Assembly: GCA_021734995.1 (NCBI GenBank) | Contig: JAIPHX010000005.1 | Location: 4,099 to 68,098 of the forward strand | Length of the DNA stretch: 64,000 nt | Source: Minisyncoccota bacterium | Lineage (GTDB): Bacteria; Patescibacteriota; Minisyncoccia; Phycocordibacterales; UBA9973 | Direction: 5' to 3' | Part shown: positions 6,542 to 63,759 of the stretch, piece after piece | How positions within the stretch are numbered: the stretch's first letter is position 1 | Layout of the letters: the number at the start of each line of letters is the position of its first letter | Translations under genes and position numbers: made by a program | The notes under the pieces: generated by a model | Database searches by the model: none | The model's input: the letters and a program-made list of their open reading frames with translations, nothing else | Told to the model about the DNA's origin: nothing

Positions 6542-9500
6542 ATGGCAAAAGAAAATAGTGCAGACACAAAGAGTGGAAAAGGGCATCATTATGATGCTTC
6601 TGACATTTCGGTCCTTGAAGGGTTGGAACCTGTCCGTAAACGTCCTGGAATGTATATTGGGACTACTGGTCCTGAAGGTTTACACCATTTGATTTGGGAA
6701 ATATTTGACAACTCTCGTGATGAAGCGATGGGAGGTTTTTGTGATACCATTGAAGTAGTTATTCTTCCAGGTAATCGTATTAGAGTAACCGACAATGGTC
6801 GTGGTATTCCGATTGATGTTCACAAAAAAACAAAAGTATCTGCTTTAGAAACAGTGATGACTACTTTGCATGCCGGAGGGAAATTTGGAGGTGAAGGATA
6901 TAAAGTGTCTGGAGGGTTGCATGGAGTGGGTGCATCAGTCGTAAATGCTCTTTCTATATATTGTAGAGCAGAAGTCCATAAAGATGGAGGTATTTATGTA
7001 CAAGAATATTCAAAAGGGGTCAAAAAATCCGCAGTAAAAAAGATTGGTTCTACTAAACAAAATGGAACGATCATTACTTTTGAGCCAGATATAGAAATTT
7101 TTAAAGAAATAAAGTTTGATTGGAATGTGATAGTCAGTCATATTCGTCAGCAAGCATATCTTGTAAAAGGACTACGAGTATCTATTATAGACGCAAGAGA
7201 ATTTGACCCAACTCTTTTATTTGAATCAAAAAATTCAAAATTAGATCCAGATTCTGTATTCTATTTCAAAGAGCTTGGCTTAGAGCTTCCATCAGTTTCT
7301 TTTTATTTTGAAGGAGGACTTACATCTTTGATTAGATATTACAATAAGTTTCAAAAACCTGTTCAACAAAATATTTTTTATGTAGAAAAAGAACAAGACG
7401 GAGTGGGGGTGGAGATTGCCTTGCAATATGTAGATGACATTGTAGATCGCATTGTTCCTTTTGCCAACAATATCTACAACCCAGAAGGTGGTACACATGT
7501 TACAGGTTTTAAAACTGCTCTTACTAGAACTCTGAATACATATTGCAAAAAGAATGAAATGATCAAAGAATCTGAAGGAGGTTTTACAGGAGAAGATGTA
7601 TTAGAAGGTCTTACTGTTGTGATATCTGTAAAGCTTCGTGAAATACAATTTGAAGGTCAAACTAAAGCAAAGCTTGGTAGTGTAGAAGCTCAAGGTGCAG
7701 TAGCTACTGTCTTTGGTGAGGCTTTTTCGGGTTTTCTAGAGGAAAATCCAGATGAAGCTAAGTCAATCATAGGAAAAGCAGTACTTGCAATGAAAGCTCG
7801 TAAAGCGGCAAAAGCTGCAAAGGATTCTGTGCTACGTAAGGGAGCTCTTGAGGGGATGACTCTTCCAGGAAAGTTAGCAGATTGTCAAACAAAAGATGCG
7901 AGTGAATCTGAACTCTTTATTGTGGAAGGAGATTCTGCAGGAGGGTGTTTTTCAGGAGACACAAAAGTTGCTTTGGTTGACGGTAGAAATATATCTTTTA
8001 AAGAAATTATTGCTGAATATCAAAATAACAAAAAAAATTATTGTTACACAATACTTCATGATGGTAGTATTGGAATACAAGAAATAAAAAATCCAAGAAG
8101 AACAAAGACTAACGCAGAAGTTATAAAAATTATCTTGGATAATAATGAAGAAATAGTCTGCACTCCAGACCATTTGTTTATGTTGAGAGACGGTACTTAT
8201 AAACAAGCAAAAGATATTTTGATTACAGATTCTCTTATGCCCCTTAGAAAAAAGATTTCTGAAATTGGAGGGCGTATCACAATAAAGGGATATGAAATGG
8301 TCTATAATAACAATTCTAATAGATGGATCTTTACTCATATGTTGGCAGATGAATTTAATTTGCGTAAAGGTTTTGATACTATTGAAAATGGTGCATATAG
8401 GCATCACAAAGATTTTAATAAAACAAATAATAATCCGGACAATATAGTAAGACTCACAAAGGAAGAGCATATTTCTCTGCATTCTTTTTATTATGAAAAA
8501 AATTTAAAAAGACCAGATGTATTAGAAAAATTAAGTATTTTAAGAAAGACTCCGGAATATAGACAAAAAATAAGAGAAAAAATGCTCGCTATGAGAGAAG
8601 ATTTAAGTATTAGAGCTAAAGCACAATGGGAAAATGAAGAATATAAGAAATATATGGTAAATAAATTTTTAGATTTTTATGCTTCCAATAAAGATTATAG
8701 AGAAAAAAGTCAAAATATTTTACAAAAAGCACAGAAAGAATATTGGGCTAGTACTGAAAATAAAAAGAAGCAATCAAAAAAAGTGAAAGAGTTTTTTGCA
8801 ATGAATCCTTTAGCAAAAGTTAATTTGAGTGAAAAAGCTAAAAAACAATGGATGCAAGGTGATTTGTTGGATTGGAGAAGCAAAAAAACACAAGAACAAT
8901 GGACAGAAGAATTTAGGGAAAAGAGAAGAATTGCTTATAATAAAACTTATTACGAAAACACAATTAGAGTTCTAAAAAGAGTTTATGACCAAACCAAATC
9001 TATAGACATACAGTCTTTTGAAGATTTAAGAAAGATAGAAAATAATAAAAATGTACTATCGTTCAATACTTTTTTTAATAGGTTTTTCGATGAAGATTTT
9101 AATAGATTGAAAGATGCTGTTGAAAACTATAACCACAAAATAAAGAGTATTGTGCATCTTTCTGGGAAAATTGATGTGTATGATATTGAGGTTCCAGGTA
9201 CTCACAATTTTGCTCTTGCTTCTGGTGTTTTTGTTCACAATAGTGCAAAGCAAGGTAGAGATAGAAGGACTCAAGCGATTTTGCCTTTGCGCGGAAAAAT
9301 TTTGAATGTGGAGAGAGCTAGAATAGACAAAATGCTTGCATCCAAGGAAGTAAAAGCTCTCGTTATAGCATTAGGAACTTCTATTGGAGATACTTTTGAT
9401 ATAGAAAAGGCACGATATCACAAAATAATTATCGCTACTGATGCCGACGTGGACGGGTCTCACATTAGGACACTTTTGCTTACTTTGTTTTATAGATATT

Positions 9501-9952
9501 TCAAACAAATTATTGAGGCAGGGTATATCTATATTGCTCAACCTCCTTTGTTTAAGATAAAGAAAGGTAAAGAAGTTTTTTATGTTTATTCAGATGAAGA
9601 GAAAAATAAAATTATTGGTAAAGAAGAAAATCTTGATGATATTCAAAATGAAAATGATAGTTACAATCAAGAAGAAAATACGGAAAACACAGAAGACGCA
9701 GAAGAAAATACAGAAGAGGTAAAAAAGAAATCTGCAAAGCCTAGAGTGCAAAGATATAAGGGTCTCGGAGAAATGAATCCAGAGGAGTTGTGGGAGACTA
9801 CAATGGATCCAGAAAGAAGAGTGATCAAGCAAGTCACTATTGAAGATGCAGAGGAAGCAAATAAAATATTTGATATTTTAATGGGTTCAGATGTTGTCCC
9901 ACGTAAGTCTTTTATTCAATCCAATGCAAAGCTTGCGGAGATTGACTTGTAA
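6542..9952 (+). CDS. gyrB: DNA gyrase subunit B interrupted by a 432-aa intein
   Basis: N-terminal GHKL ATPase (RKRPGMYIGTTG, HHLIWEIFDNSRDEA). The Toprim motif EGDSAGG is split from SAKQGRDRRTQAILPLRGKILNVE by the insert. The C-terminal tail KRYKGLGEMNPEELWETTMDP is present. Confidence 0.9.
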   Translation: MAKENSADTKSGKGHHYDASDISVLEGLEPVRKRPGMYIGTTGPEGLHHLIWEIFDNSRDEAMGGFCDTIEVVILPGNRIRVTDNGRGIPIDVHKKTKVSALETVMTTLHAGGKFGGEGYKVSGGLHGVGASVVNALSIYCRAEVHKDGGIYVQEYSKGVKKSAVKKIGSTKQNGTIITFEPDIEIFKEIKFDWNVIVSHIRQQAYLVKGLRVSIIDAREFDPTLLFESKNSKLDPDSVFYFKELGLELPSVSFYFEGGLTSLIRYYNKFQKPVQQNIFYVEKEQDGVGVEIALQYVDDIVDRIVPFANNIYNPEGGTHVTGFKTALTRTLNTYCKKNEMIKESEGGFTGEDVLEGLTVVISVKLREIQFEGQTKAKLGSVEAQGAVATVFGEAFSGFLEENPDEAKSIIGKAVLAMKARKAAKAAKDSVLRKGALEGMTLPGKLADCQTKDASESELFIVEGDSAGGCFSGDTKVALVDGRNISFKEIIAEYQNNKKNYCYTILHDGSIGIQEIKNPRRTKTNAEVIKIILDNNEEIVCTPDHLFMLRDGTYKQAKDILITDSLMPLRKKISEIGGRITIKGYEMVYNNNSNRWIFTHMLADEFNLRKGFDTIENGAYRHHKDFNKTNNNPDNIVRLTKEEHISLHSFYYEKNLKRPDVLEKLSILRKTPEYRQKIREKMLAMREDLSIRAKAQWENEEYKKYMVNKFLDFYASNKDYREKSQNILQKAQKEYWASTENKKKQSKKVKEFFAMNPLAKVNLSEKAKKQWMQGDLLDWRSKKTQEQWTEEFREKRRIAYNKTYYENTIRVLKRVYDQTKSIDIQSFEDLRKIENNKNVLSFNTFFNRFFDEDFNRLKDAVENYNHKIKSIVHLSGKIDVYDIEVPGTHNFALASGVFVHNSAKQGRDRRTQAILPLRGKILNVERARIDKMLASKEVKALVIALGTSIGDTFDIEKARYHKIIIATDADVDGSHIRTLLLTLFYRYFKQIIEAGYIYIAQPPLFKIKKGKEVFYVYSDEEKNKIIGKEENLDDIQNENDSYNQEENTENTEDAEENTEEVKKKSAKPRVQRYKGLGEMNPEELWETTMDPERRVIKQVTIEDAEEANKIFDILMGSDVVPRKSFIQSNAKLAEIDL
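7946..9241 (+). mobile_element. intein with an HNH-type homing-endonuclease-like domain, inserted in gyrB between EGDSAGG and SAKQGRD
   Basis: It starts with Cys (CFSGDTKVALVDG, block A) and ends VFVHN followed by Ser as the +1 extein residue. An internal HNH-like motif (YRHHKDFNKTNNNPDNIVRLTKEEHISLH) lies around 8390-8485. Confidence 0.75.
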
Positions 9953-11760: not shown

Positions 11761-11995
11761 TTTGTTTTTTTTGTTTATTGATAATATAAAACATAAAATC
11801 GCCCCAACGAAAACGAATAAAATTCATTTCCATTGGGGCGATGTTAAAGTCGCGGTTCCACCCAAATTTGTTCTCTTTTTGTTTGTACGGGTTAGCCGAA
11901 TCAATCGGTCTTCTTTTTGTGTAAAAGATTATGGTTGGTAGCCACAACAATCTCCGTATGTCTTTATATAGTATCATTTTTTATAAAGGAAAACA
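11761..11995 (-). promoter_or_regulatory. T-box riboswitch leader upstream of thrS
   Basis: On the minus strand the leader reads ...AAAUUUGGGUGGAACCGCGACUUUAACAUCGCCCCAAUGGAAAUGAAUUUUAUUCGUUUUCGUUGGGGCGAUUUUAUGUUUUAU.... This contains a T-box consensus (GGGUGGNACCGCG) at plus coordinates about 11849-11869, overlapping a GC terminator hairpin (CGCCCCAA/UUGGGGCG, plus 11800-11840) plus a U-tract, immediately 5' of the thrS start. An ACC (Thr) triplet lies in the upstream region (GGCUACCAACC). Confidence 0.55.
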
Positions 11996-12048: not shown

Positions 12049-12276
12049 ATGGTAGTACGAATGCGACATACAAAATCTCATACGAAAAACAGACGATCTC
12101 ATCATGGACTGAAGAGCGATACTTTGTTTGTTTGCGACAATTGTAAAGCCCCTAAAAAAGGCCACACTGTTTGCGCATCTTGTGGTGTTTATAGAGGTAA
12201 GAAAATATTAGACTTAGTAAAAAAGGCTGAAAAAAAACAAAAGAAACAAAAAGCCAAAAAGGCTGAAACAAAATAA
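12049..12276 (+). CDS. rpmF: 50S ribosomal protein L32 with a K-rich C-terminal tail
   Basis: RMRHTKSHTKNRRSHH...VCDNCKAPKKGHTVCASCGVYRGKKI, including the L32 zinc-ribbon cysteines. Confidence 0.8.
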   Translation: MVVRMRHTKSHTKNRRSHHGLKSDTLFVCDNCKAPKKGHTVCASCGVYRGKKILDLVKKAEKKQKKQKAKKAETK

Positions 12277-12310
12277 ACCTTCTTTGGCCTGAATAATATA
12301 GATTAGTATA

Positions 12311-13252
12311 ATGGCAAACAGGCACCTTTCTAGATCAATAGTTCTCCAAACTCTCTTTGAATGGGATTTTATGAATGAGAGTGATAATACCGAGGTACAA
12401 AACCCTCGTGAAATTCTTGTGCGCAATATTGATGAATTTGCTCCAGATCTTAAAAATGATCCTTTTGTTTTTGCCTTGATTGAAAATATATTAGTGAAGC
12501 AAAAAGTGATTGATGAGATAATAGAAAAAGCTGCACCTGAATGGCCAATCCAAAAAATCTCTGTAGTAGATAGAAATATTATTCGTATTGGTCTTACAGA
12601 ACTTTTGTTTGGTGATGATTTACAGGTGCCACCCAAAGTAGCTATCAATGAATCTATAGAATTAGCAAAAACTTTTGGAGGAGAAAATTCTAGTAAATTT
12701 GTAAACGGAGTGCTTGGAGCAGTGTACAAAGAAATGGGAGAACCTCGTAAAGAAGAAAAAAGCAAAAGCAGAGAAAAGGACAATAAAGAAGTAGACATAA
12801 CTACATTACCAGTAGAAAATTATGGAGGGGCTCTAATTTACACCAAAAATGCTCCTATTGATGAAGAATCAAATTCAAAAGAACAAATAATGTTTGCTTT
12901 GGTGCACGATGTGTTTGGTTATTGGACTCTTTCTAAAGGCTCTGTCAAAGCAGACGAAGATGTGCAGGCGGGTACTATTAGAGAGATAAAAGATGAAACT
13001 GGTCTTGATATTACTATTAAAGAAAAATTGGGAGAAAATCAATATGTTGCCAACCACCCAGAAAAAGGAAAGATTCTAAAAAAAGTTACTTATTTTTTGG
13101 CAGAGAGTGATTATAAAGAGCTTGAATTGCAAACCTCAGGAGGTCTTGATGAAGCTAGATGGTTTAGAATATCAGAAATTGCCAACTTGAGATTTTACAA
13201 TGATATTGTACCGTTGGTGACATCTGCTTTAGAAATTATTAGTAAAAAATAA
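12311..13252 (+). CDS. nusB: NusB antitermination factor fused to a C-terminal Nudix hydrolase domain
   Basis: N-terminal NusB (SRSIVLQTLFEWDF...PPKVAINESIELAKTFGGENSSKFVNGVLGAV). After a K/E linker comes a Nudix box, GSVKADEDVQAGTIREIKDETGL (Gx5Ex7REuxEExGu). Confidence 0.75.
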   Translation: MANRHLSRSIVLQTLFEWDFMNESDNTEVQNPREILVRNIDEFAPDLKNDPFVFALIENILVKQKVIDEIIEKAAPEWPIQKISVVDRNIIRIGLTELLFGDDLQVPPKVAINESIELAKTFGGENSSKFVNGVLGAVYKEMGEPRKEEKSKSREKDNKEVDITTLPVENYGGALIYTKNAPIDEESNSKEQIMFALVHDVFGYWTLSKGSVKADEDVQAGTIREIKDETGLDITIKEKLGENQYVANHPEKGKILKKVTYFLAESDYKELELQTSGGLDEARWFRISEIANLRFYNDIVPLVTSALEIISKK

Positions 13253-13258
13253 AAATAT

Positions 13259-13954
13259 ATGGTTAGTTTTACAGAATTTGAAAAAGCAACAGGAATAAAT
13301 TTTAAAGATAAAGATTTATTAAAACAATCTTTTATTCATCGTTCATACATAAATGAAAACCCTGGTTCCAAATTATCACACAATGAAAGGTTGGAGTTTT
13401 TGGGTGATGCTGTACTTGAGTTGGTGGTAACTGATTTTTTGTATAAAAAATATCCTACATATTCTGAAGGGGATTTGACTGCAGTAAGATCTGCCTTGGT
13501 AAATGCTGTGATTATTTCAAAAGTAGCCTCAGATTTGGGAATGAATGAATACTTACTTCTTTCAAAAGGAGAATCAAAAGATAAAGGGAAAGCACGCCAA
13601 TATATTTTGGCAAATACTTATGAGGCTTATGTAGGAGCAGTATATCTTGATCAAGGTTATAAAATTGCTGAGAAGTTTATCACAGAGAATCTTCTTTCAT
13701 ATACAGAAGAAATTATTTCAAAGAAACTTTGGCGTGATGCAAAGAGTTTAGCACAAGAAAAAGCCCAAGAAGAGCTAGGAGTAACTCCATCATATCGGGT
13801 ATTGCACGAATCTGGCCCAGATCATGATAAGCATTTTACTGTCGGAATATATTTTGGAAATACTTTAGCAGGGGAAGGAAAAGGAAAATCTAAACAAGAA
13901 GCAGAACAAAAATCAGCTGAATCAGCATTAAAAGCTAAAAATTGGCTTGAATAA
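13259..13954 (+). CDS. rnc: ribonuclease III
   Basis: RNase III signature ERLEFLGDAVLELVVTDFLY and a C-terminal dsRBD. Confidence 0.85.
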   Translation: MVSFTEFEKATGINFKDKDLLKQSFIHRSYINENPGSKLSHNERLEFLGDAVLELVVTDFLYKKYPTYSEGDLTAVRSALVNAVIISKVASDLGMNEYLLLSKGESKDKGKARQYILANTYEAYVGAVYLDQGYKIAEKFITENLLSYTEEIISKKLWRDAKSLAQEKAQEELGVTPSYRVLHESGPDHDKHFTVGIYFGNTLAGEGKGKSKQEAEQKSAESALKAKNWLE

Positions 13955-16187
13955 TATGCGATTACAAAGTCTAGTTATAAACGGATTTAAATCTTTTGCC
14001 AAGAAGACTAGTCTTGTGTTTGAAAGTCCCATTGTATGCGTAGTAGGCCCCAATGGTTCTGGAAAATCCAACGTGTTAGAGGCTATTCGTTTTGTGCTTG
14101 GAGAACAATCTATGAAATCTATGCGTGGACGATCTGGAAGTGATATGGTTTTTAAAGGTTCTAAAAATTTATCCAAAGGCTCAAAAGCAGAGGTTTCTAT
14201 CTATTTTGACAACAAAGACAATGTCTTCAAAATGCCAAACGAAGAGGGGGAAAGTATTTCTCTTGATTTTGATACGGTATCTATTTCCCGCGAAGTATAT
14301 ACCGACGGTATGAACAAGTATGTTTTAAATGATTCTGAAGTTAGACTTAAAGACATAAATGCACTTTTGGCTTCTGTAAATATTGGTTCTTCTGGTCATC
14401 ATATTATTTCTCAAGGTGAAGCAGACAGAATTTTGAATGCAAATTCGAGAGAGCGAAAAGAAATGATTGAAGATGCTCTTGGTCTCAAAATTTATCAATA
14501 CAAGATTAAAGATACTGAAAGAAAATTAGAAAAAACAGGTATAAACATGCAAGAAGTATCTATGCTTCGTAGAGAAAATGCTCCGCATCTAAATTTTCTA
14601 AAAAAACAAGTAGAAAAAATAGAAAAAGCAACAGAAATGTCAGAAGAGCTTTTTGGTCTGTATTTAGAATATCTAAAAAAAGAAAATATTTTGATTGGGA
14701 CTGAGTATTCAAAACTTTCAGCAGAAAAAAAAGAAATAGACACTGAGCTGAAAGATTTAGAAGGAAAAATACAAGAAGTAGAAGATATTGCAGAGGGGAA
14801 TGGAGAGGATATCCAAGCTCTTTCTGTTTTGGAAAATAAAGTGATGGATATTCGTCGCCTAAAGAGTGAAATGGAAAGAAAGCTTGGTAGGGTAGAAGGA
14901 ATGATGGAAGCTGAGATAGAAAGAAGTAAAAAAATAGATGAAAGAATAGCAGTGGATCCATTAGAAGCACAAAAAGCTTTATTTGACCTAGATAAAATAG
15001 TAGAAGAGGCGATTAGTACAGAAAGTATTGAGGATATTAAGATTATTTTGGAGAGAATAAAAAATATTTTAAAAAGTGTTTTACATAAGGAAATTTCTGT
15101 TTCGAATGATTACTCCAACCAGATTGCTACCCTAGAAGAAAGTAAAAAAAGTATTTTAGTAGAAATAGATAATCTAACTAAAGAAGAAAATAACCTATCT
15201 GCTACTGTTCTAAATATGCGTCAAGAAAATAGAGAAAAAATGGAAGCAATGCGAGAAAAAGAAAAAGAAAAGTTTGGATTAAAGGTGAGACATCAAGAGT
15301 TGGTCTCAGCTCTCGGAGTTATTAATCTAAAAGAAGAAAATTTATCTAAAAGAAAAGAAGATTTTGAAAATGAAATTAAAGAAGGAAGGCCTTTGGTAGG
15401 GGAAAGGATTCATTCTTTTGAAGACTTTGAAATAAATGTAGAAAATAATCTTTCTAATAATACACAAGAAGAGTTGAAAAGAAGAATTGAGAGAATAAAA
15501 ATAAAACTTGAAGATGCCGGATTGGCTGGGAGTGGGGATGTAATGAAGGAATACAAAGAAGCTACTGAAAGAGATGTTTTTCTTTTGAGAGAGATGGAAG
15601 ATTTGGCAAATAGTATTGAATCCTTAAAAAAATTAATGGTGGATTTAAAAGAAAAGATAGATACAGAGTTTAAAGAAGGAGTACGAAAGATTAATAAAGA
15701 ATTTCAAGAATTATTTGTCAAAATGTTTGGTGGAGGAACCGCTTCTTTGCAAGTAGTAATGCAAAGTAGAAATAAAACCATAGCTGATGTAGAAAATGAA
15801 GATAATACAGATGAAGAAGAGATTGTGTTTGAGCAAGGAGTAGATATCAATGTTTCTTTGCCACACAAAAAAGTAAAAGAACTTCATGCTTTGTCGGGGG
15901 GCGAAAGATCTCTTACTTCTATTGCACTACTTTTTGCGATGTCTCAAGTAAACCCACCACCATTTTTGGTATTAGATGAGACTGACGCCGCTTTAGATGA
16001 ATCAAATTCTCGTAAATATGGAGATATGCTTGAGATATTATCTAAGCATTCACAATTGATTGTGATTACTCACAACAGAGAGACAATGTCTCGTGCAGGA
16101 GTTCTTTATGGAGTTACTATTGGAGCTGATGGAGCTTCAAAGCTTCTTTCTGTTAGATTTGATGAAGCAGTAGCTATTGCGAAATAG
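13947..16187 (+). CDS. smc: SMC-family ATPase, unusually short (746 aa) with no obvious hinge
   Basis: N-terminal SMC head (INGFKSFAKKTSLVFESPIVCVVGPNGSGKSNVLEAIRFVLGEQS). C-terminal signature and Walker B (LSGGERSLTSIALLFAM...FLVLDETDAALDE). The middle is coiled-coil. Its start overlaps the rnc stop. Confidence 0.7.
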   Translation: MNNMRLQSLVINGFKSFAKKTSLVFESPIVCVVGPNGSGKSNVLEAIRFVLGEQSMKSMRGRSGSDMVFKGSKNLSKGSKAEVSIYFDNKDNVFKMPNEEGESISLDFDTVSISREVYTDGMNKYVLNDSEVRLKDINALLASVNIGSSGHHIISQGEADRILNANSRERKEMIEDALGLKIYQYKIKDTERKLEKTGINMQEVSMLRRENAPHLNFLKKQVEKIEKATEMSEELFGLYLEYLKKENILIGTEYSKLSAEKKEIDTELKDLEGKIQEVEDIAEGNGEDIQALSVLENKVMDIRRLKSEMERKLGRVEGMMEAEIERSKKIDERIAVDPLEAQKALFDLDKIVEEAISTESIEDIKIILERIKNILKSVLHKEISVSNDYSNQIATLEESKKSILVEIDNLTKEENNLSATVLNMRQENREKMEAMREKEKEKFGLKVRHQELVSALGVINLKEENLSKRKEDFENEIKEGRPLVGERIHSFEDFEINVENNLSNNTQEELKRRIERIKIKLEDAGLAGSGDVMKEYKEATERDVFLLREMEDLANSIESLKKLMVDLKEKIDTEFKEGVRKINKEFQELFVKMFGGGTASLQVVMQSRNKTIADVENEDNTDEEEIVFEQGVDINVSLPHKKVKELHALSGGERSLTSIALLFAMSQVNPPPFLVLDETDAALDESNSRKYGDMLEILSKHSQLIVITHNRETMSRAGVLYGVTIGADGASKLLSVRFDEAVAIAK

Positions 16188-16227: not shown

Positions 16228-18138
16228 TTAATTACTTTTTTCCTTAGGAATTTCTATTTTTGTAGTCTTTAATATTTTAAATTTTATTTCTTCTTCTTTG
16301 CCGAGTATTACTTTATCTGGCTTGAAGGTCTTGTCTAACTTTACTACATTTTTTTGAGTACCAATATCACCGTTACGCCATAGTTTTATTTGAAGCAACA
16401 TTCCTTGCATTGTATTTTCTGAAAATCCTTGATCAAAAATAAAATTACCCATAGAATAAGCAATAAAACCATCTTTATATTTTTCAGTGTCCTGCATTAC
16501 ATGTGGGTGATGGCCTATTACCAACTTCGCTCCATTGTCTATTGCTTTATGAGCGAGGTATTCTTGCCTAGTATTGTGAATGATTTTATATTCATCCCCA
16601 AAATGGAAAGATACTATCAAATGATCCACTTTGGTAGAAGCATTTTTTATTATTTCACCAAATCTAGTGTCTTTCGCTAATAGTATTCCAGCATTTTCAT
16701 TTACCCCAAGCCAATCTGGTCCTACATCAGAAAAACCCAAGTAACCAATTTTCATACCATATTTTTCTATAATGACAGGTTCTTCTGCTTCTTGTCTATT
16801 TGTGCCACCACCTGTGTAATATATCTCATTTTCTTTTAGTCTCTTTAGAGTGTCCACAAAAGCATCTCTTCCCCAGTCTCCAGCATGATTGTTGGCTACG
16901 GATAAAACATCAATACCAGAACTTTTAATTGCAGGGATAGTTTCAGGATTCATTCTAAATGAATACAAATTTCTGCGGTCTATTCCTTGGTCTGAGGCTG
17001 GTCCTTCTAGGTTGGCAAATGTAATATCAGCTTCTTTTAAAATATTTAGATTTTCAAATAATTCTGCATAGTCTCCATTCATATTTTTGTTTACAGAATT
17101 TTTTACTCCTCTATCAAGCATCATATCTCCAGCAAATAAAAGAGTAACAAAATCTGGTTCTTTTATATGAGGAACACCAGCCCTTTCCATGACCCATATA
17201 GAGCTTGCATCTTTTTTACCACCATAGTAAATATTATTTTTTAAAAAGTTTAATATTCTCTCTACATCTTTATATCGGTCATTACTTTGTAGTAATGCTA
17301 TTGCGACATTTCTATTTCCATTTTCTGATAGGGGAATGGAAAACAAAGACACAACAGTCTCTTTCGCTGGATCAGTATAGCCACTTTTTCCTCCCAAATA
17401 ACCTTCTTTTGTTAAAAATTGATTATTGCTAAACCAACTATGTATTTTATTATTGAAATTTCTTTGAGTAGTTATTTTAAACAAATCAGATGCTTCGTTG
17501 TGTAAATATCCTACAAGTTTAAAAAGATCAAAAGCTGTAGATTGATTGTCTTTGGATAGTCCACTTGGATCTTTGAAATATGTGTCAGTTAGCTCTATTT
17601 TTTCGGCTACTTGATTCATTTTGCTTAAGAAATTTTCTCTATTGAAATGTTCTGCCAATATTTCTGATGCGTCGTTGCTAGATTCAAGTAATAAAGCATA
17701 CAATAAATCATTTGTTTTTATTTTCTCCCCAACTCTAAAATTTCCGTTTTTTCCATAAGTATCTAGTGCTCTTTTTGTGGCAGTAGCAACATCTTTTTCG
17801 TCTGATAGCTCTTTTGCTACATAAGCTGTCATTACTTTTGATACAGAAGCTATTGGGTGCCTATCTTTTTCATTTTTAGAGATTATTACCTCACCTGTGT
17901 CTAAATCTCCCACTAAATATGCTTTAGCCGATACTTTTAATTCATTACTAGGTTCTTTTACAAAATAGTATTTAGGAGTTTCTACTTTTGTGGCTTCTAC
18001 TACATTGGCTTCTACTGAAATATCTTTCTTATCTAAATTTTTGATGTACTCTATCCCATAAAAAGCTCCTGACATCAGACCTGCTCCAAATAAAAAGGAA
18101 AATAATATAAAAAATGTATATTTTAATTTTAATTTCAT
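16228..18138 (-). CDS. secreted fusion protein: S11 D-alanyl-D-alanine carboxypeptidase (PBP5-like) domain plus CapA-family metallophosphoesterase domain
   Basis: N-terminal signal or TM segment. S11 motifs SxxK (ASVSKVMT), SxN (SNDAS) and KTG (GKSGYT). C-terminal CapA/PGA_cap-like motifs (ANNHAGDWG, GHHPHVMQ, GNFIFDQ). Confidence 0.7.
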   Translation of the reverse strand: MKLKLKYTFFILFSFLFGAGLMSGAFYGIEYIKNLDKKDISVEANVVEATKVETPKYYFVKEPSNELKVSAKAYLVGDLDTGEVIISKNEKDRHPIASVSKVMTAYVAKELSDEKDVATATKRALDTYGKNGNFRVGEKIKTNDLLYALLLESSNDASEILAEHFNRENFLSKMNQVAEKIELTDTYFKDPSGLSKDNQSTAFDLFKLVGYLHNEASDLFKITTQRNFNNKIHSWFSNNQFLTKEGYLGGKSGYTDPAKETVVSLFSIPLSENGNRNVAIALLQSNDRYKDVERILNFLKNNIYYGGKKDASSIWVMERAGVPHIKEPDFVTLLFAGDMMLDRGVKNSVNKNMNGDYAELFENLNILKEADITFANLEGPASDQGIDRRNLYSFRMNPETIPAIKSSGIDVLSVANNHAGDWGRDAFVDTLKRLKENEIYYTGGGTNRQEAEEPVIIEKYGMKIGYLGFSDVGPDWLGVNENAGILLAKDTRFGEIIKNASTKVDHLIVSFHFGDEYKIIHNTRQEYLAHKAIDNGAKLVIGHHPHVMQDTEKYKDGFIAYSMGNFIFDQGFSENTMQGMLLQIKLWRNGDIGTQKNVVKLDKTFKPDKVILGKEEEIKFKILKTTKIEIPKEKSN

Positions 18139-40596: not shown

Positions 40597-40669
40597 AGCC
40601 GGCACGAGGATTCGAACCCCGGACCTTCGCTTTACAAAAGCGTTGCTCTACCAACTGAGCTATGCCGGC
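40597..40669 (-). tRNA. trnT: tRNA-Thr (anticodon TGT)
   Basis: The reverse complement GCCGGCATAGCTCAGTTGGTAGAGCAACGCTTTTGTAAAGCGAAGGTCCGGGGTTCGAATCCTCGTGCCGGCT folds as a cloverleaf: 7-bp acceptor stem, anticodon loop TTTGTAA, T-loop TTCGAAT. CCA is not encoded. Confidence 0.85.
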
Positions 40670-52049: not shown

Positions 52050-52348
52050 GACTTATATCAGATGATTGCTCTTGTTTTTTAACAAGAGAGGAAAGTCCGA
52101 ACACGCAGTCGGCCTAGCCGATTAAACGTAGTGGGTAATACCCATCTTCCAAGGAGTTGGAAAGAGGTGCGAACAGAGACGAGTCTTTAGCTTCGGCTAA
52201 AGAGTGAAACGGCAAAATCCTTACGCGCGTGCAAGATCGTGTCCGTTTTTACGGAAGAATCGCTTGACTCTATTGGTAACAATAGAGCTAGATAAATAAT
52301 CATCGACTCTTTTAAAGAGTTACAGAATTCGGCTTATAGGTATAAGAC
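52050..52348 (+). ncRNA. rnpB: RNase P RNA, bacterial type A, compact (about 300 nt)
   Basis: P3 hairpin CTCTTGTTttttAACAAGAG followed by the P4 5' strand GAGGAAAGTCCGAAC. The 3' side carries ACAGAATTCGGCTTAT. P1 is the CTTATA/TATAAG pairing at the ends. Confidence 0.65.
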
Positions 52349-52354
52349 TCATAT

Positions 52355-63677: not shown

Positions 63678-63759
63678 TGCCGGAGGGGAGACTTGAACTC
63701 CCATGAGTCACCTCGCTTGCTCCTAAGGCAAGTGCGTCTACCAATTTCGCCACCCCGGC
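63678..63759 (-). tRNA. trnL: tRNA-Leu (anticodon TAG), class II with a long variable arm
   Basis: The reverse complement GCCGGGGTGGCGAAATTGGTAGACGCACTTGCCTTAGGAGCAAGCGAGGTGACTCATGGGAGTTCAAGTCTCCCCTCCGGCA folds with a 3-bp D stem, anticodon loop CTTAGGA and a long variable arm. Confidence 0.85.

Follow-up and report, generated by a model that had tools for sequence, protein, structure and literature searches.

The DNA analyzed here is a 64,000-nucleotide stretch (the window) of contig JAIPHX010000005.1 from a Minisyncoccota bacterium. It contains a gene in which the transcription antitermination factor NusB, an essential bacterial protein that serves the synthesis of ribosomal RNA, is joined to a Nudix domain in one polypeptide. 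The open reading frame (ORF) encodes a bona fide, complete NusB, a flexible linker and a complete Nudix fold. The GC content is even over both halves of the gene, and no second NusB-like ORF was found in the 64-kb window. The coordinates of the gene, its domains and its operon neighbors are listed in Table 1.

Table 1. Coordinates of the fusion gene, its domains and the adjacent genes in the window.
Feature	Positions	Strand	Evidence and remarks
nusB::nudix fusion gene	12311..13252	+	one ORF, ATG start, 313 amino acids (aa) and stop, no stop inside
NusB domain, aa 1–143	12311..12739	+	TIGR01951, Pfam, PDB and Foldseek matches
K/E-rich disordered linker, aa 144–166 (23 aa)	12740..12808	+	low model confidence, variable among orthologues
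Nudix domain, aa 167–313, assigned to the Ap4A-hydrolase-like subgroup	12809..13249	+	Pfam NUDIX, Foldseek, family profile
Nudix box G210–L232, GSVKADEDVQAGTIREIKDETGL	12938..13006	+	E216, R224, E225, D228, E229; direct sequence reading
rpmF (ribosomal protein L32), first gene of the conserved operon	12049..12276	+	Pfam Ribosomal_L32p, E 8.7e-15
rnc (RNase III)	13259..13954	+	Pfam Ribonucleas_3_3, Ribonuclease_3, dsrm
smc-like ATPase gene, 746 aa, TTG start	13947..16187	+	Pfam SMC_N, AAA models

The NusB part was identified by the Pfam model PF01029 (aa 7–140, E 1.7e-32, 113 bits with a gathering score of 23.1) and by the NCBIfam nusB equivalog TIGR01951, which scored 112.2 bits with a cutoff of 88.35 and covered aa 4–141 (model positions 2–130 of 131). 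In a comparison with PDB sequences the N-terminal half of the protein matched NusB of T. maritima (1tzt, 5e-20), Aquifex, E. coli and M. tuberculosis with E-values from 5e-20 to 1e-10, and the C-terminal half matched Nudix proteins. We calculated two AlphaFold models, the first from 73 sequences (predicted local distance difference test, pLDDT, 85; predicted template modeling score, pTM, 0.51) and the second from 101 sequences (pLDDT 91, pTM 0.68). The NusB domain adopts the all-helical NusB fold with six or seven helices and a pLDDT above 90 (AF2 model). Foldseek superposed it on Aquifex NusB of the NusB-NusE-BoxA complex (3r2c_A) and on 3r2d_B with a TMt of 0.85 and a root-mean-square deviation (rmsd) of 2.2–2.3 Å. 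The N-terminal 143 residues thus match stand-alone NusB (E. coli, T. maritima 1TZT, Aquifex 3R2C) at equivalog level and have the same six-helix fold. The protein differs from these factors by its C-terminal linker and 147-aa Nudix domain, and its gene differs by the rpmF/rnc context; the context of nusB elsewhere we take to be ribH/thiL in E. coli and folD in Bacillus.

The Pfam NUDIX model PF00293 matched aa 203–295 (E 1.5e-11, 44.9 bits with a gathering score of 21.1). The modeled C-terminal domain is an α/β/α fold with strands at residues 168–178, 194–200, 208–212, 234–249, 253–266 and 279–286 and the box helix at residues 218–230. Foldseek returned 521 PDB matches at E ≤ 0.001 with a best TMt of 0.85; the top ones among those listed were nearly all Nudix proteins. 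The box consensus GX5EX7REUXEEXGU is matched by G210, E216, R224, E225, I226, D228, E229, G231 and L232, the sole departure being the conservative exchange of the leading E of "EE" for D228. An insertion of about 9–10 residues (PI.EESNSK, aa 181–190, 12851–12880) extends the loop that joins the first and the second Nudix strand; it has no counterpart in nearly all orthologues and coincides with a dip in pLDDT.

The two domains are connected by the K/E-rich linker EPRKEEKSKSREKDNKEVDITTLP (about aa 144–167). It is the only low-confidence stretch of both AlphaFold models, with a pLDDT below 50 for aa 146–158 in the first and aa 149–154 in the second. Among orthologues its length varies from 7 to 36 aa at a net charge of about 0. 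The mean pairwise identity among 81 orthologues is 71% for the NusB domain, 60% for the Nudix domain and 45% for the linker.

Occurrence and operon context of the fusion

A search of 5.8 billion proteins yielded at least 8000 homologues. The best 120 are 299–325 aa long and 65–72% identical to the window protein, contain both Pfam domains in 119 cases and, where named, stem from Pacebacteria, Paceibacterota, Nomurabacteria or the Patescibacteria group. All 120 are annotated as "transcription antitermination factor NusB" only; the fusion is readable in the precomputed Pfam annotations, yet the naming stops at "NusB". In a collection with one genome per species a relative is encoded in 323 genomes. 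We examined 80 orthologous loci, each from a different species genome of this set, and found a single uninterrupted fused ORF in every one of them (294–335 aa, 54–68% identity). A divergent fusion (P0214, 35% identity to the window protein) has 2484 relatives of its own; the 120 listed are 273–323 aa long, 118 with both Pfam domains, and are assigned, where named, to Parcubacteria, Paceibacter, Terrybacteria or the Patescibacteria group. Divergent members at 35–45% identity have likewise kept the fusion. Since the ORF is fused in all loci examined and in the divergent members too, the fusion is fixed across the Parcubacteria/Paceibacteria radiation, a large set of ultrasmall and uncultured bacteria within the candidate phyla radiation (CPR).

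Many fused loci bear the title "uncultured Candidatus Saccharibacteria" (54–68% identity, Parcubacteria-type gene). We regarded such titles as placeholder names, since proteins named Saccharimonadales and a contig of a Saccharibacteria assembly have the split arrangement described below. A cluster look-up supplied hardly any taxon names for the divergent fusion representatives, and a single "Alphaproteobacteria" label was discarded as probably due to a mis-binned metagenome-assembled genome. An apparent NusB-Nudix-RNase III triple fusion (L026, 517 aa) was rejected as well, its junction (1400–1500) being a masked run of N translated as X.

The first-pass annotation of this DNA, made from the letters alone, had read the 313-aa ORF as a complete NusB joined through a K/E-rich linker to a Nudix fold. 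Pfam, TIGR01951 and the models agree on this architecture: the nusB equivalog is above its cutoff over the full domain, the C-terminal region passes PF00293, and the Nudix box, described there as intact, is essentially so with its one E to D exchange. The same annotation had asked whether related genomes carry the fusion, as all 80 species loci do, and had named a sequencing frameshift as an alternative. A frameshift or assembly error that merges two genes might draw some support from the separate nusB and nudix genes of another lineage. The same continuous ORF with a variable linker length in 80 of 80 independent species genomes and in thousands of metagenome proteins excludes it, and its probability is negligible.

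The operon is conserved along with the fusion. In the window rpmF lies 34 nt 5' of the fusion gene, rnc follows 6 nt 3' of it, and the smc-like gene overlaps rnc by 8 nt. A scan of the + strand between rpmF, the fusion gene and rnc gave no terminator-like site. Among the 80 orthologous loci rnc is located downstream in all 80, rpmF upstream in 77 (directly adjacent in 76) and smc downstream in 67. The smc-like neighbor is probably outside the functional unit; in Saccharibacteria its position after rnc is taken by rpsP-KH-trmD. Its product gave no match to a hinge domain; it may be an SMC/RecN-like ATPase in a shortened form, as is typical of these genomes. A promoter-like element, TTGGCC-17-TATAAT, spans the ATG of the fusion gene (12284–12312, +, 10/12 matches); in the promoter scan of the region such sites were no more numerous than in shuffled sequence.

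A metagenome scan that started from stand-alone proteins related to the Nudix domain (P0161, P0179, P0206, P0241) gave mostly generic Nudix genes of about 30% identity, but it also revealed a split form of the locus. In sixteen metagenome loci nusB is followed by a distinct Nudix ORF, read in the +1 frame, and then by rnc; four more show the Nudix gene followed by rnc at the edge of the contig. NusB of the split loci is 40–52% identical to the NusB domain of the window protein, starts with MASNRHLGRI and ends at a true stop codon (TAA, TAG or TGA). The separate Nudix homologues gave 5592 matches of 162–168 aa, named "NUDIX domain-containing protein" and assigned to Candidatus Saccharibacteria or Saccharimonadales. 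On a 1.29-Mb Saccharibacteria contig (GCA_016789455.1) rpmF (57 aa), nusB (173 aa), nudix (165 aa), rnc, rpsP, a KH-domain gene and trmD follow one another, and a gap of 1 nt separates the stop codon of nusB from the ATG of nudix. The Saccharibacteria split locus L161 is headed by rpmF, and rnc follows the separate Nudix gene in all Saccharibacteria loci.

The Saccharibacteria operon holds nusB and nudix as separate genes 1 nt apart, before rnc, and we therefore conclude that the fusion arose from adjacent genes (a Rosetta-stone relationship) and that the nusB-nudix-rnc triad is older than the fusion. The separate proteins have features of their own. Saccharibacteria NusB ends in an acidic, low-complexity tail (L161 4478–5498, L083–L153), and the Nudix protein starts with a basic extension that contains the conserved motif F-[RK]-[RK]-K-P-x-I-Q-E-I-V-R-E. 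This protein has a net charge of about +6 in its first 30 residues and of +7 in total, compared to a mean of -4.7 for the fused Nudix domain. These opposite charges suggest a non-covalent NusB-Nudix complex in Saccharibacteria. The conserved rpmF-nusB-nudix-rnc operon, together with its split form in Saccharibacteria, is the strongest functional clue that we have, and it was absent from the first-pass annotation.

Some loci of the scan stand apart. By profile score, P0161 (L163 4001–4453; 150 aa with a canonical box) and P0179 are the two stand-alone proteins closest to the fused Nudix domain. P0161 scores 138 bits with the family profile; genes for a phage integrase and a DNA methylase and a Rep_O-like gene share its contig, and it may be a phage-borne copy. 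P0179 scores 143 bits and sits on a contig of 993 bp; the P0179 and P0206 contigs are too short to be informative. L164 is a palindromic contig that contains rnc twice in opposite orientation; its nusB ORF is truncated and overlaps with a Nudix-like ORF whose box is degenerate. An assembly artefact or a frameshifted fusion is the probable explanation.

Nudix subgroup and state of the catalytic box

Searches by phmmer, by the family profile and by Foldseek all ranked the same structures first: 3i7u, 4ilq/4mpo, 1vc8, 9cxx, 3u53 and 1kt9. With the family profile the E-values were 8e-13 for 3i7u, 1e-11 for CT771, 6e-10 for Ndx1, 4e-8 for Dcp2 and 1e-7 for NUDT2. The best Foldseek match was the Aquifex hydrolase aq_158 (3i7u, TMt 0.85) for diadenosine tetraphosphate (Ap4A), followed by Rv2985, CT771, Ndx1, NUDT2, Dcp2 and NrtR. 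The other top matches include the human and C. elegans Ap4A hydrolases, Ndx1 of T. thermophilus, which is an Ap6A hydrolase, and Rv2985, which is titled a diadenosine polyphosphatase in the PDB. By similarity of sequence, profile and fold, the domain is placed in the Ap4A-hydrolase/NUDT2-like subgroup, and all members retain its nucleotide-pocket signature.

Several signatures are shared with the hydrolases of diadenosine polyphosphates (ApnA): W-T-x-[SP]-K-G before the box, the post-box tyrosine Y245, K257-x-V-x-Y261-F-L, W284-F285 and the C-terminal L293..Y296.D298. In ApnA hydrolases the base is typically stacked on a Tyr or Phe about 17 aa downstream of the box (PMC2425470; Tyr87 of NUDT2, PMC5389931). 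Y245 is conserved to 91–100% across samples and lies 13 aa after the box, where it is aligned to the tyrosine at +13 in the Aquifex enzyme; it may correspond to the +17 tyrosine of the animal enzymes. The solved ApnA hydrolases (aq_158 3I7U, CT771, Ndx1, NUDT2, Rv2985) are thus the best sequence, profile and fold matches of the family. They differ from it in that the identity is just 22–25%, and in that the domain described here is fused to NusB, has often lost its catalytic glutamates and is known from sequence.

The same Nudix subtype occurs in other combinations that may be gene-calling fusions, namely in P0259 (1219 aa; STAND NTPase, tetratricopeptide repeats, NusB and Nudix) in P0243 (a helix-turn-helix, DnaA_C and sigma70_r4, with Nudix) and in P0156 (an endonuclease V fragment with Nudix).

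To describe the state of the box we counted it as canonical when E216, R224, E225, E/D228 and E229 were all present. This was the case in 36/81 species-level orthologues, in 85/119 of the closest database matches, in 99/120 relatives of the divergent P0214 and in 5/33 complete fusions among cluster representatives at 50% identity. The share of canonical boxes in fused proteins thus ranges from 15 to 83% over the four samples, and the separate Saccharibacteria genes (65–94% identity) have a canonical box in 140/140 cases. Among the 81 species the conservation is 79% for E216, 75% for R224, 57% for E225, 75% for E228 and 96% for E229; across samples E225 ranges from 57 to 84% and E229 from 85 to 100%. 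E225 is replaced by K, A, V, G, S or R, E228 by K, D, Q or S, R224 by K, Q or G and E229 occasionally by K. On a neighbor-joining tree of the 81 species, built with the box columns left out, parsimony assigned an intact box to the root and required at least 20 changes of state. E216 and R224 covary (rank 2 in mutual information with average product correction, MI-APC).

The remainder of the domain is well preserved. In 120 P0214 relatives G173, D200, F202, W205, T206, K209, G210, E229, Y245, G253, K257, Y261, G278, W284, F285, Y296 and D298 are conserved to at least 99%, and most of these residues are conserved to at least 82% in the 50%-identity representatives (K257 to 73%). The mean pairwise identity of the Nudix domain is 59.8% in box-degenerate and 60.9% in box-intact lineages, compared to 45% for the linker. 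We conclude that the Nudix domain is under purifying selection throughout, with canonical hydrolysis not being the selected trait in many lineages. Because the catalytic residues are often replaced while the rest of the domain stays equally conserved, it is not catalysis that holds the domain on NusB. The box itself seems to be under relaxed constraint in the fused family, and it has degenerated in particular lineages and not in the family as a whole. By its residues the window protein belongs to the catalytically complete class, and its Nudix domain is probably active.

Possible roles of the fused domain

NusB and S10 bind boxA in rRNA leaders and spacers and nucleate the antitermination complex. 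RNase III cleaves the stems flanking 16S and 23S rRNA co-transcriptionally. RppH/NudH and related Nudix enzymes, which were originally reported as ApnA hydrolases, act as pyrophosphohydrolases on RNA 5' ends. Based on these activities and on the gene order we tentatively favor the following reading, which we regard as a serious possibility: the protein would be a NusB-tethered Nudix module for nucleoside oligophosphates or RNA 5' ends that works with RNase III on rRNA leaders. The NusB domain would bind, together with S10, to boxA in the nascent leader, and the linker would hold the Nudix pocket near the 5' end of the boxA-bearing transcript. The pocket would then bind the 5' nucleoside-oligophosphate terminus, either a 5'-triphosphate or a nucleoside-tetraphosphate (Np4)-type cap. 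Members with an intact box, such as the window protein with E216, R224, E225, D228 and E229, would probably act like RppH and NUDT2 and hydrolyze the terminus so that a 5'-monophosphate is left. For this genome hydrolysis is the probable outcome because the metal-binding set is complete. Once freed by the co-encoded RNase III, the leader would be ready for 5'-monophosphate-dependent trimming or decay. Relatives with replaced catalytic glutamates (often Lys) would retain the binding of the 5' end or nucleotide but not its cleavage. Binding and positioning would thus be the core selected function and hydrolysis an optional extra.

Known systems provide parallels for the separate parts of this scheme. 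The human Ap4A hydrolase NUDT2 converts PPP-RNA to P-RNA (PMC8616924). Np4A alarmones give rise to Np4 caps, and RppH, ApaH or YqeK, as well as Np4A hydrolases in general, take these caps off again (PMC8833179, PMC13010140). The chemistry proposed for the fusion resembles that of RppH (NudH) and NUDT2, i.e. removal of 5' oligophosphates or Np4 caps that licenses decay; RppH, however, is a free enzyme that is not tethered to a transcription factor. In RsmB/Sun a NusB-like domain is combined with an rRNA m5C (5-methylcytosine) methyltransferase, a precedent for a NusB-type RNA-binding domain that delivers catalysis to rRNA, and RsmB models match the NusB part of the fusion weakly. The NusB-like domain of RsmB is a paralogue and not an antitermination factor, whereas the fusion passes the true NusB model and has a Nudix partner. 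Dcp2 likewise has a helical N-terminal domain followed by a Nudix domain that acts on RNA 5' ends, and its Nudix domain is among the significant matches. There is no relationship between the helical domains, the full-length proteins superpose poorly (rmsd 14–16 Å), and Dcp2 is eukaryotic and specific for the 7-methylguanosine (m7G) cap.

The first-pass annotation had argued from RNA decapping by Nudix enzymes and an intact box that a hydrolase would sit on the transcription complex. Chemistry at RNA 5' ends seems a reasonable idea by analogy, as the nearest solved relatives are Ap4A/ApnA hydrolases and Dcp2 and as NUDT2 is a PPP-RNA pyrophosphatase (PMC8616924). The step from the box to a tethered hydrolase fails for the family as a whole: catalytic Glu or Arg residues are replaced in 17–85% of fused orthologues, depending on the sample, and the state of the box has changed at least 20 times among 81 species.

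Several points weigh against a role at RNA 5' ends. The net charge of the fused Nudix domain is negative (mean -4.7; -7 in the window protein), which does not speak for a general RNA-binding surface. No rRNA operon and no boxA were found in the 64-kb window. Repeated loss of catalytic residues would be odd if conversion of the 5' end were important, and a 5'-end activity of family members is proposed by analogy. "RppH-like" can itself be meant only as an analogy because the RppH equivalog models failed (NF001938, 15.1 bits vs 116; NF001936, 14 bits vs 118). The Saccharibacteria Nudix proteins score 54–71 bits with the fused-family profile and several unrelated stand-alone Nudix proteins 65–143 bits, so that orthology of the separate proteins to the fused domain rests mainly on gene position.

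An invariant nucleotide pocket combined with decaying catalytic residues is the pattern expected of a ligand-sensing pseudoenzyme. The Nudix domain might accordingly bind free ApnA or a related nucleotide, and its occupancy, or local clearance of the ligand, would tune NusB antitermination to stress or growth, in the manner of NrtR or CFIm25. The closest solved relatives are all ApnA hydrolases, and NrtR, an ADP-ribose-binding Nudix protein, is among the fold matches. CFIm25 (NUDT21), NrtR and AraR are degenerate-box Nudix folds that have been kept as ligand or RNA binders within the machinery of transcription or nucleic-acid processing. CFIm25 is part of an RNA-processing complex and has no catalytic activity; it binds Ap4A with a dissociation constant of 2.4 µM and does not hydrolyze it (PMC2425470). 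The window protein differs from these binders in that it keeps the full catalytic set. The separate Saccharibacteria genes and most Parcubacteria fusions are catalytically complete too, so that hydrolysis would be ancestral and usually kept, and a sensor would leave the invariant adjacency of rnc unexplained. We consider an alarmone hydrolase or sensor unlikely, with enough in its favor to be kept in mind. If ligand and catalysis are both irrelevant, the Nudix fold could be a structural subunit that contacts RNA polymerase, S10, NusA/NusG or RNase III in a CPR-specific antitermination or processing complex. SuhB is comparable in this respect, as it brings a metabolic-enzyme fold into the NusB-containing rrn antitermination complex of E. 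coli with its own catalysis being dispensable; it differs by its inositol monophosphatase fold and by being a separate, unfused subunit. Dispensable catalytic residues fit such a role, as does the rise of the AlphaFold pTM from 0.51 to 0.68 with the deeper alignment. The 50 top covarying pairs (MI-APC, effective number of sequences about 126, without phylogenetic control) include the inter-domain pairs K82-Y268, D50/E69-S311 and V66-R294/F295, a hint of a preferred docking, and the acidic NusB tail and basic Nudix N-terminus of Saccharibacteria would fit a non-covalent complex. The covariation, however, lacks phylogenetic control, and the invariant residues are those of the nucleotide pocket common to Ap4A hydrolases (K209, Y245, K257, Y261, Y296) and form no obviously new surface. 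A pure scaffold would also have no need for E229, which is conserved to 85–100% over the four samples. We therefore regard a purely structural role as distinctly unlikely.

A housekeeping enzyme of the MutT/MutT1 type, which cleans damaged nucleoside triphosphates and came to be fused as a chance neighbor of nusB in the course of genome streamlining, appears very improbable. Gene fusions do happen in compact CPR genomes, the Joint Genome Institute (JGI) label on the Saccharibacteria genes is "8-oxo-dGTP pyrophosphatase MutT", and there are weak matches to mycobacterial MutT1 (NF052459; PDB 9cxx, 5gg5). The MutT1 equivalog NF052459, however, reached 28.3 bits, far under its cutoff of 475, the C-terminal histidine-phosphatase domain is absent, and Rv2985 itself is titled a diadenosine polyphosphatase. 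An uncoupled cleaner should not tolerate repeated loss of catalytic glutamates in a domain under purifying selection, and the nusB-nudix-rnc order is kept over two deeply separated CPR classes.

The module for transcript 5' ends can be extended to a more general proposal, which we hold to be rather doubtful. Patescibacteria would have built a Nudix module that recognizes and processes RNA 5' ends into rRNA antitermination, fused in Parcubacteria and translationally coupled in Saccharibacteria. The 5' end of the pre-rRNA would be captured, deprotected where the box is intact and passed to RNase III and 5'-monophosphate-dependent nucleases. NusB would in this case be the first Nus factor with an RNA-end-modifying activity, and a lineage-specific rRNA transcription-processing complex would be defined.

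NusB is a universal, well-studied factor that, to our knowledge, has never been reported with an enzymatic appendage. Literature searches that paired NusB with Nudix, also together with CPR names, gave no description of the fusion among the matches listed, and a review of the Nudix clan does not mention NusB or antitermination. Both domains belong to known families; their combination and the logic of the operon were not found in the literature searched. A whole class-level CPR lineage with thousands of genomes carries such an appendage, hidden under the annotation "NusB". The split and fused forms of the nusB-nudix-rnc order are a classic Rosetta-stone signal, which suggests that a protein of the Ap4A-hydrolase/NUDT2 type cooperates with NusB and RNase III and which indicates that the transcription of rRNA, its processing and chemistry at RNA 5' ends are linked in a way not described so far. 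If the domain works at the 5' ends of transcripts, antitermination, deprotection (of triphosphates or Np4 caps) and rRNA processing would be united in one machine, and the missing RppH-like activity of these minimal organisms would be identified. The repeated decay of the glutamates with the pocket being kept provides a natural series of transitions from enzyme to binder. Saccharibacteria are now cultivable and genetically tractable, and the split-gene version is therefore directly testable.

Other features of the window

Some further features of the window are described here for completeness. The gyrB gene (6542–9952, +) is a 1136-aa ORF in which an intein (Pfam Intein_splicing, aa 478–900) separates the GyrB domain from the Toprim domain. 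A hairpin of about 20 pairs followed by a T-run (11798–11842, -) lies a short way upstream of the start of thrS (11760); it was terminator-like in the scan and may be a leader or attenuator of thrS. A 635-aa protein (16228–18138, -) combines Peptidase_S11 (D-Ala-D-Ala carboxypeptidase) with PGA_cap/CapA, an unusual cell-envelope fusion. The RNAs found in the window are a bacterial class A RNase P RNA (52050–52352, +) and two tRNAs (40597–40669, -, and 63678–63759, -).

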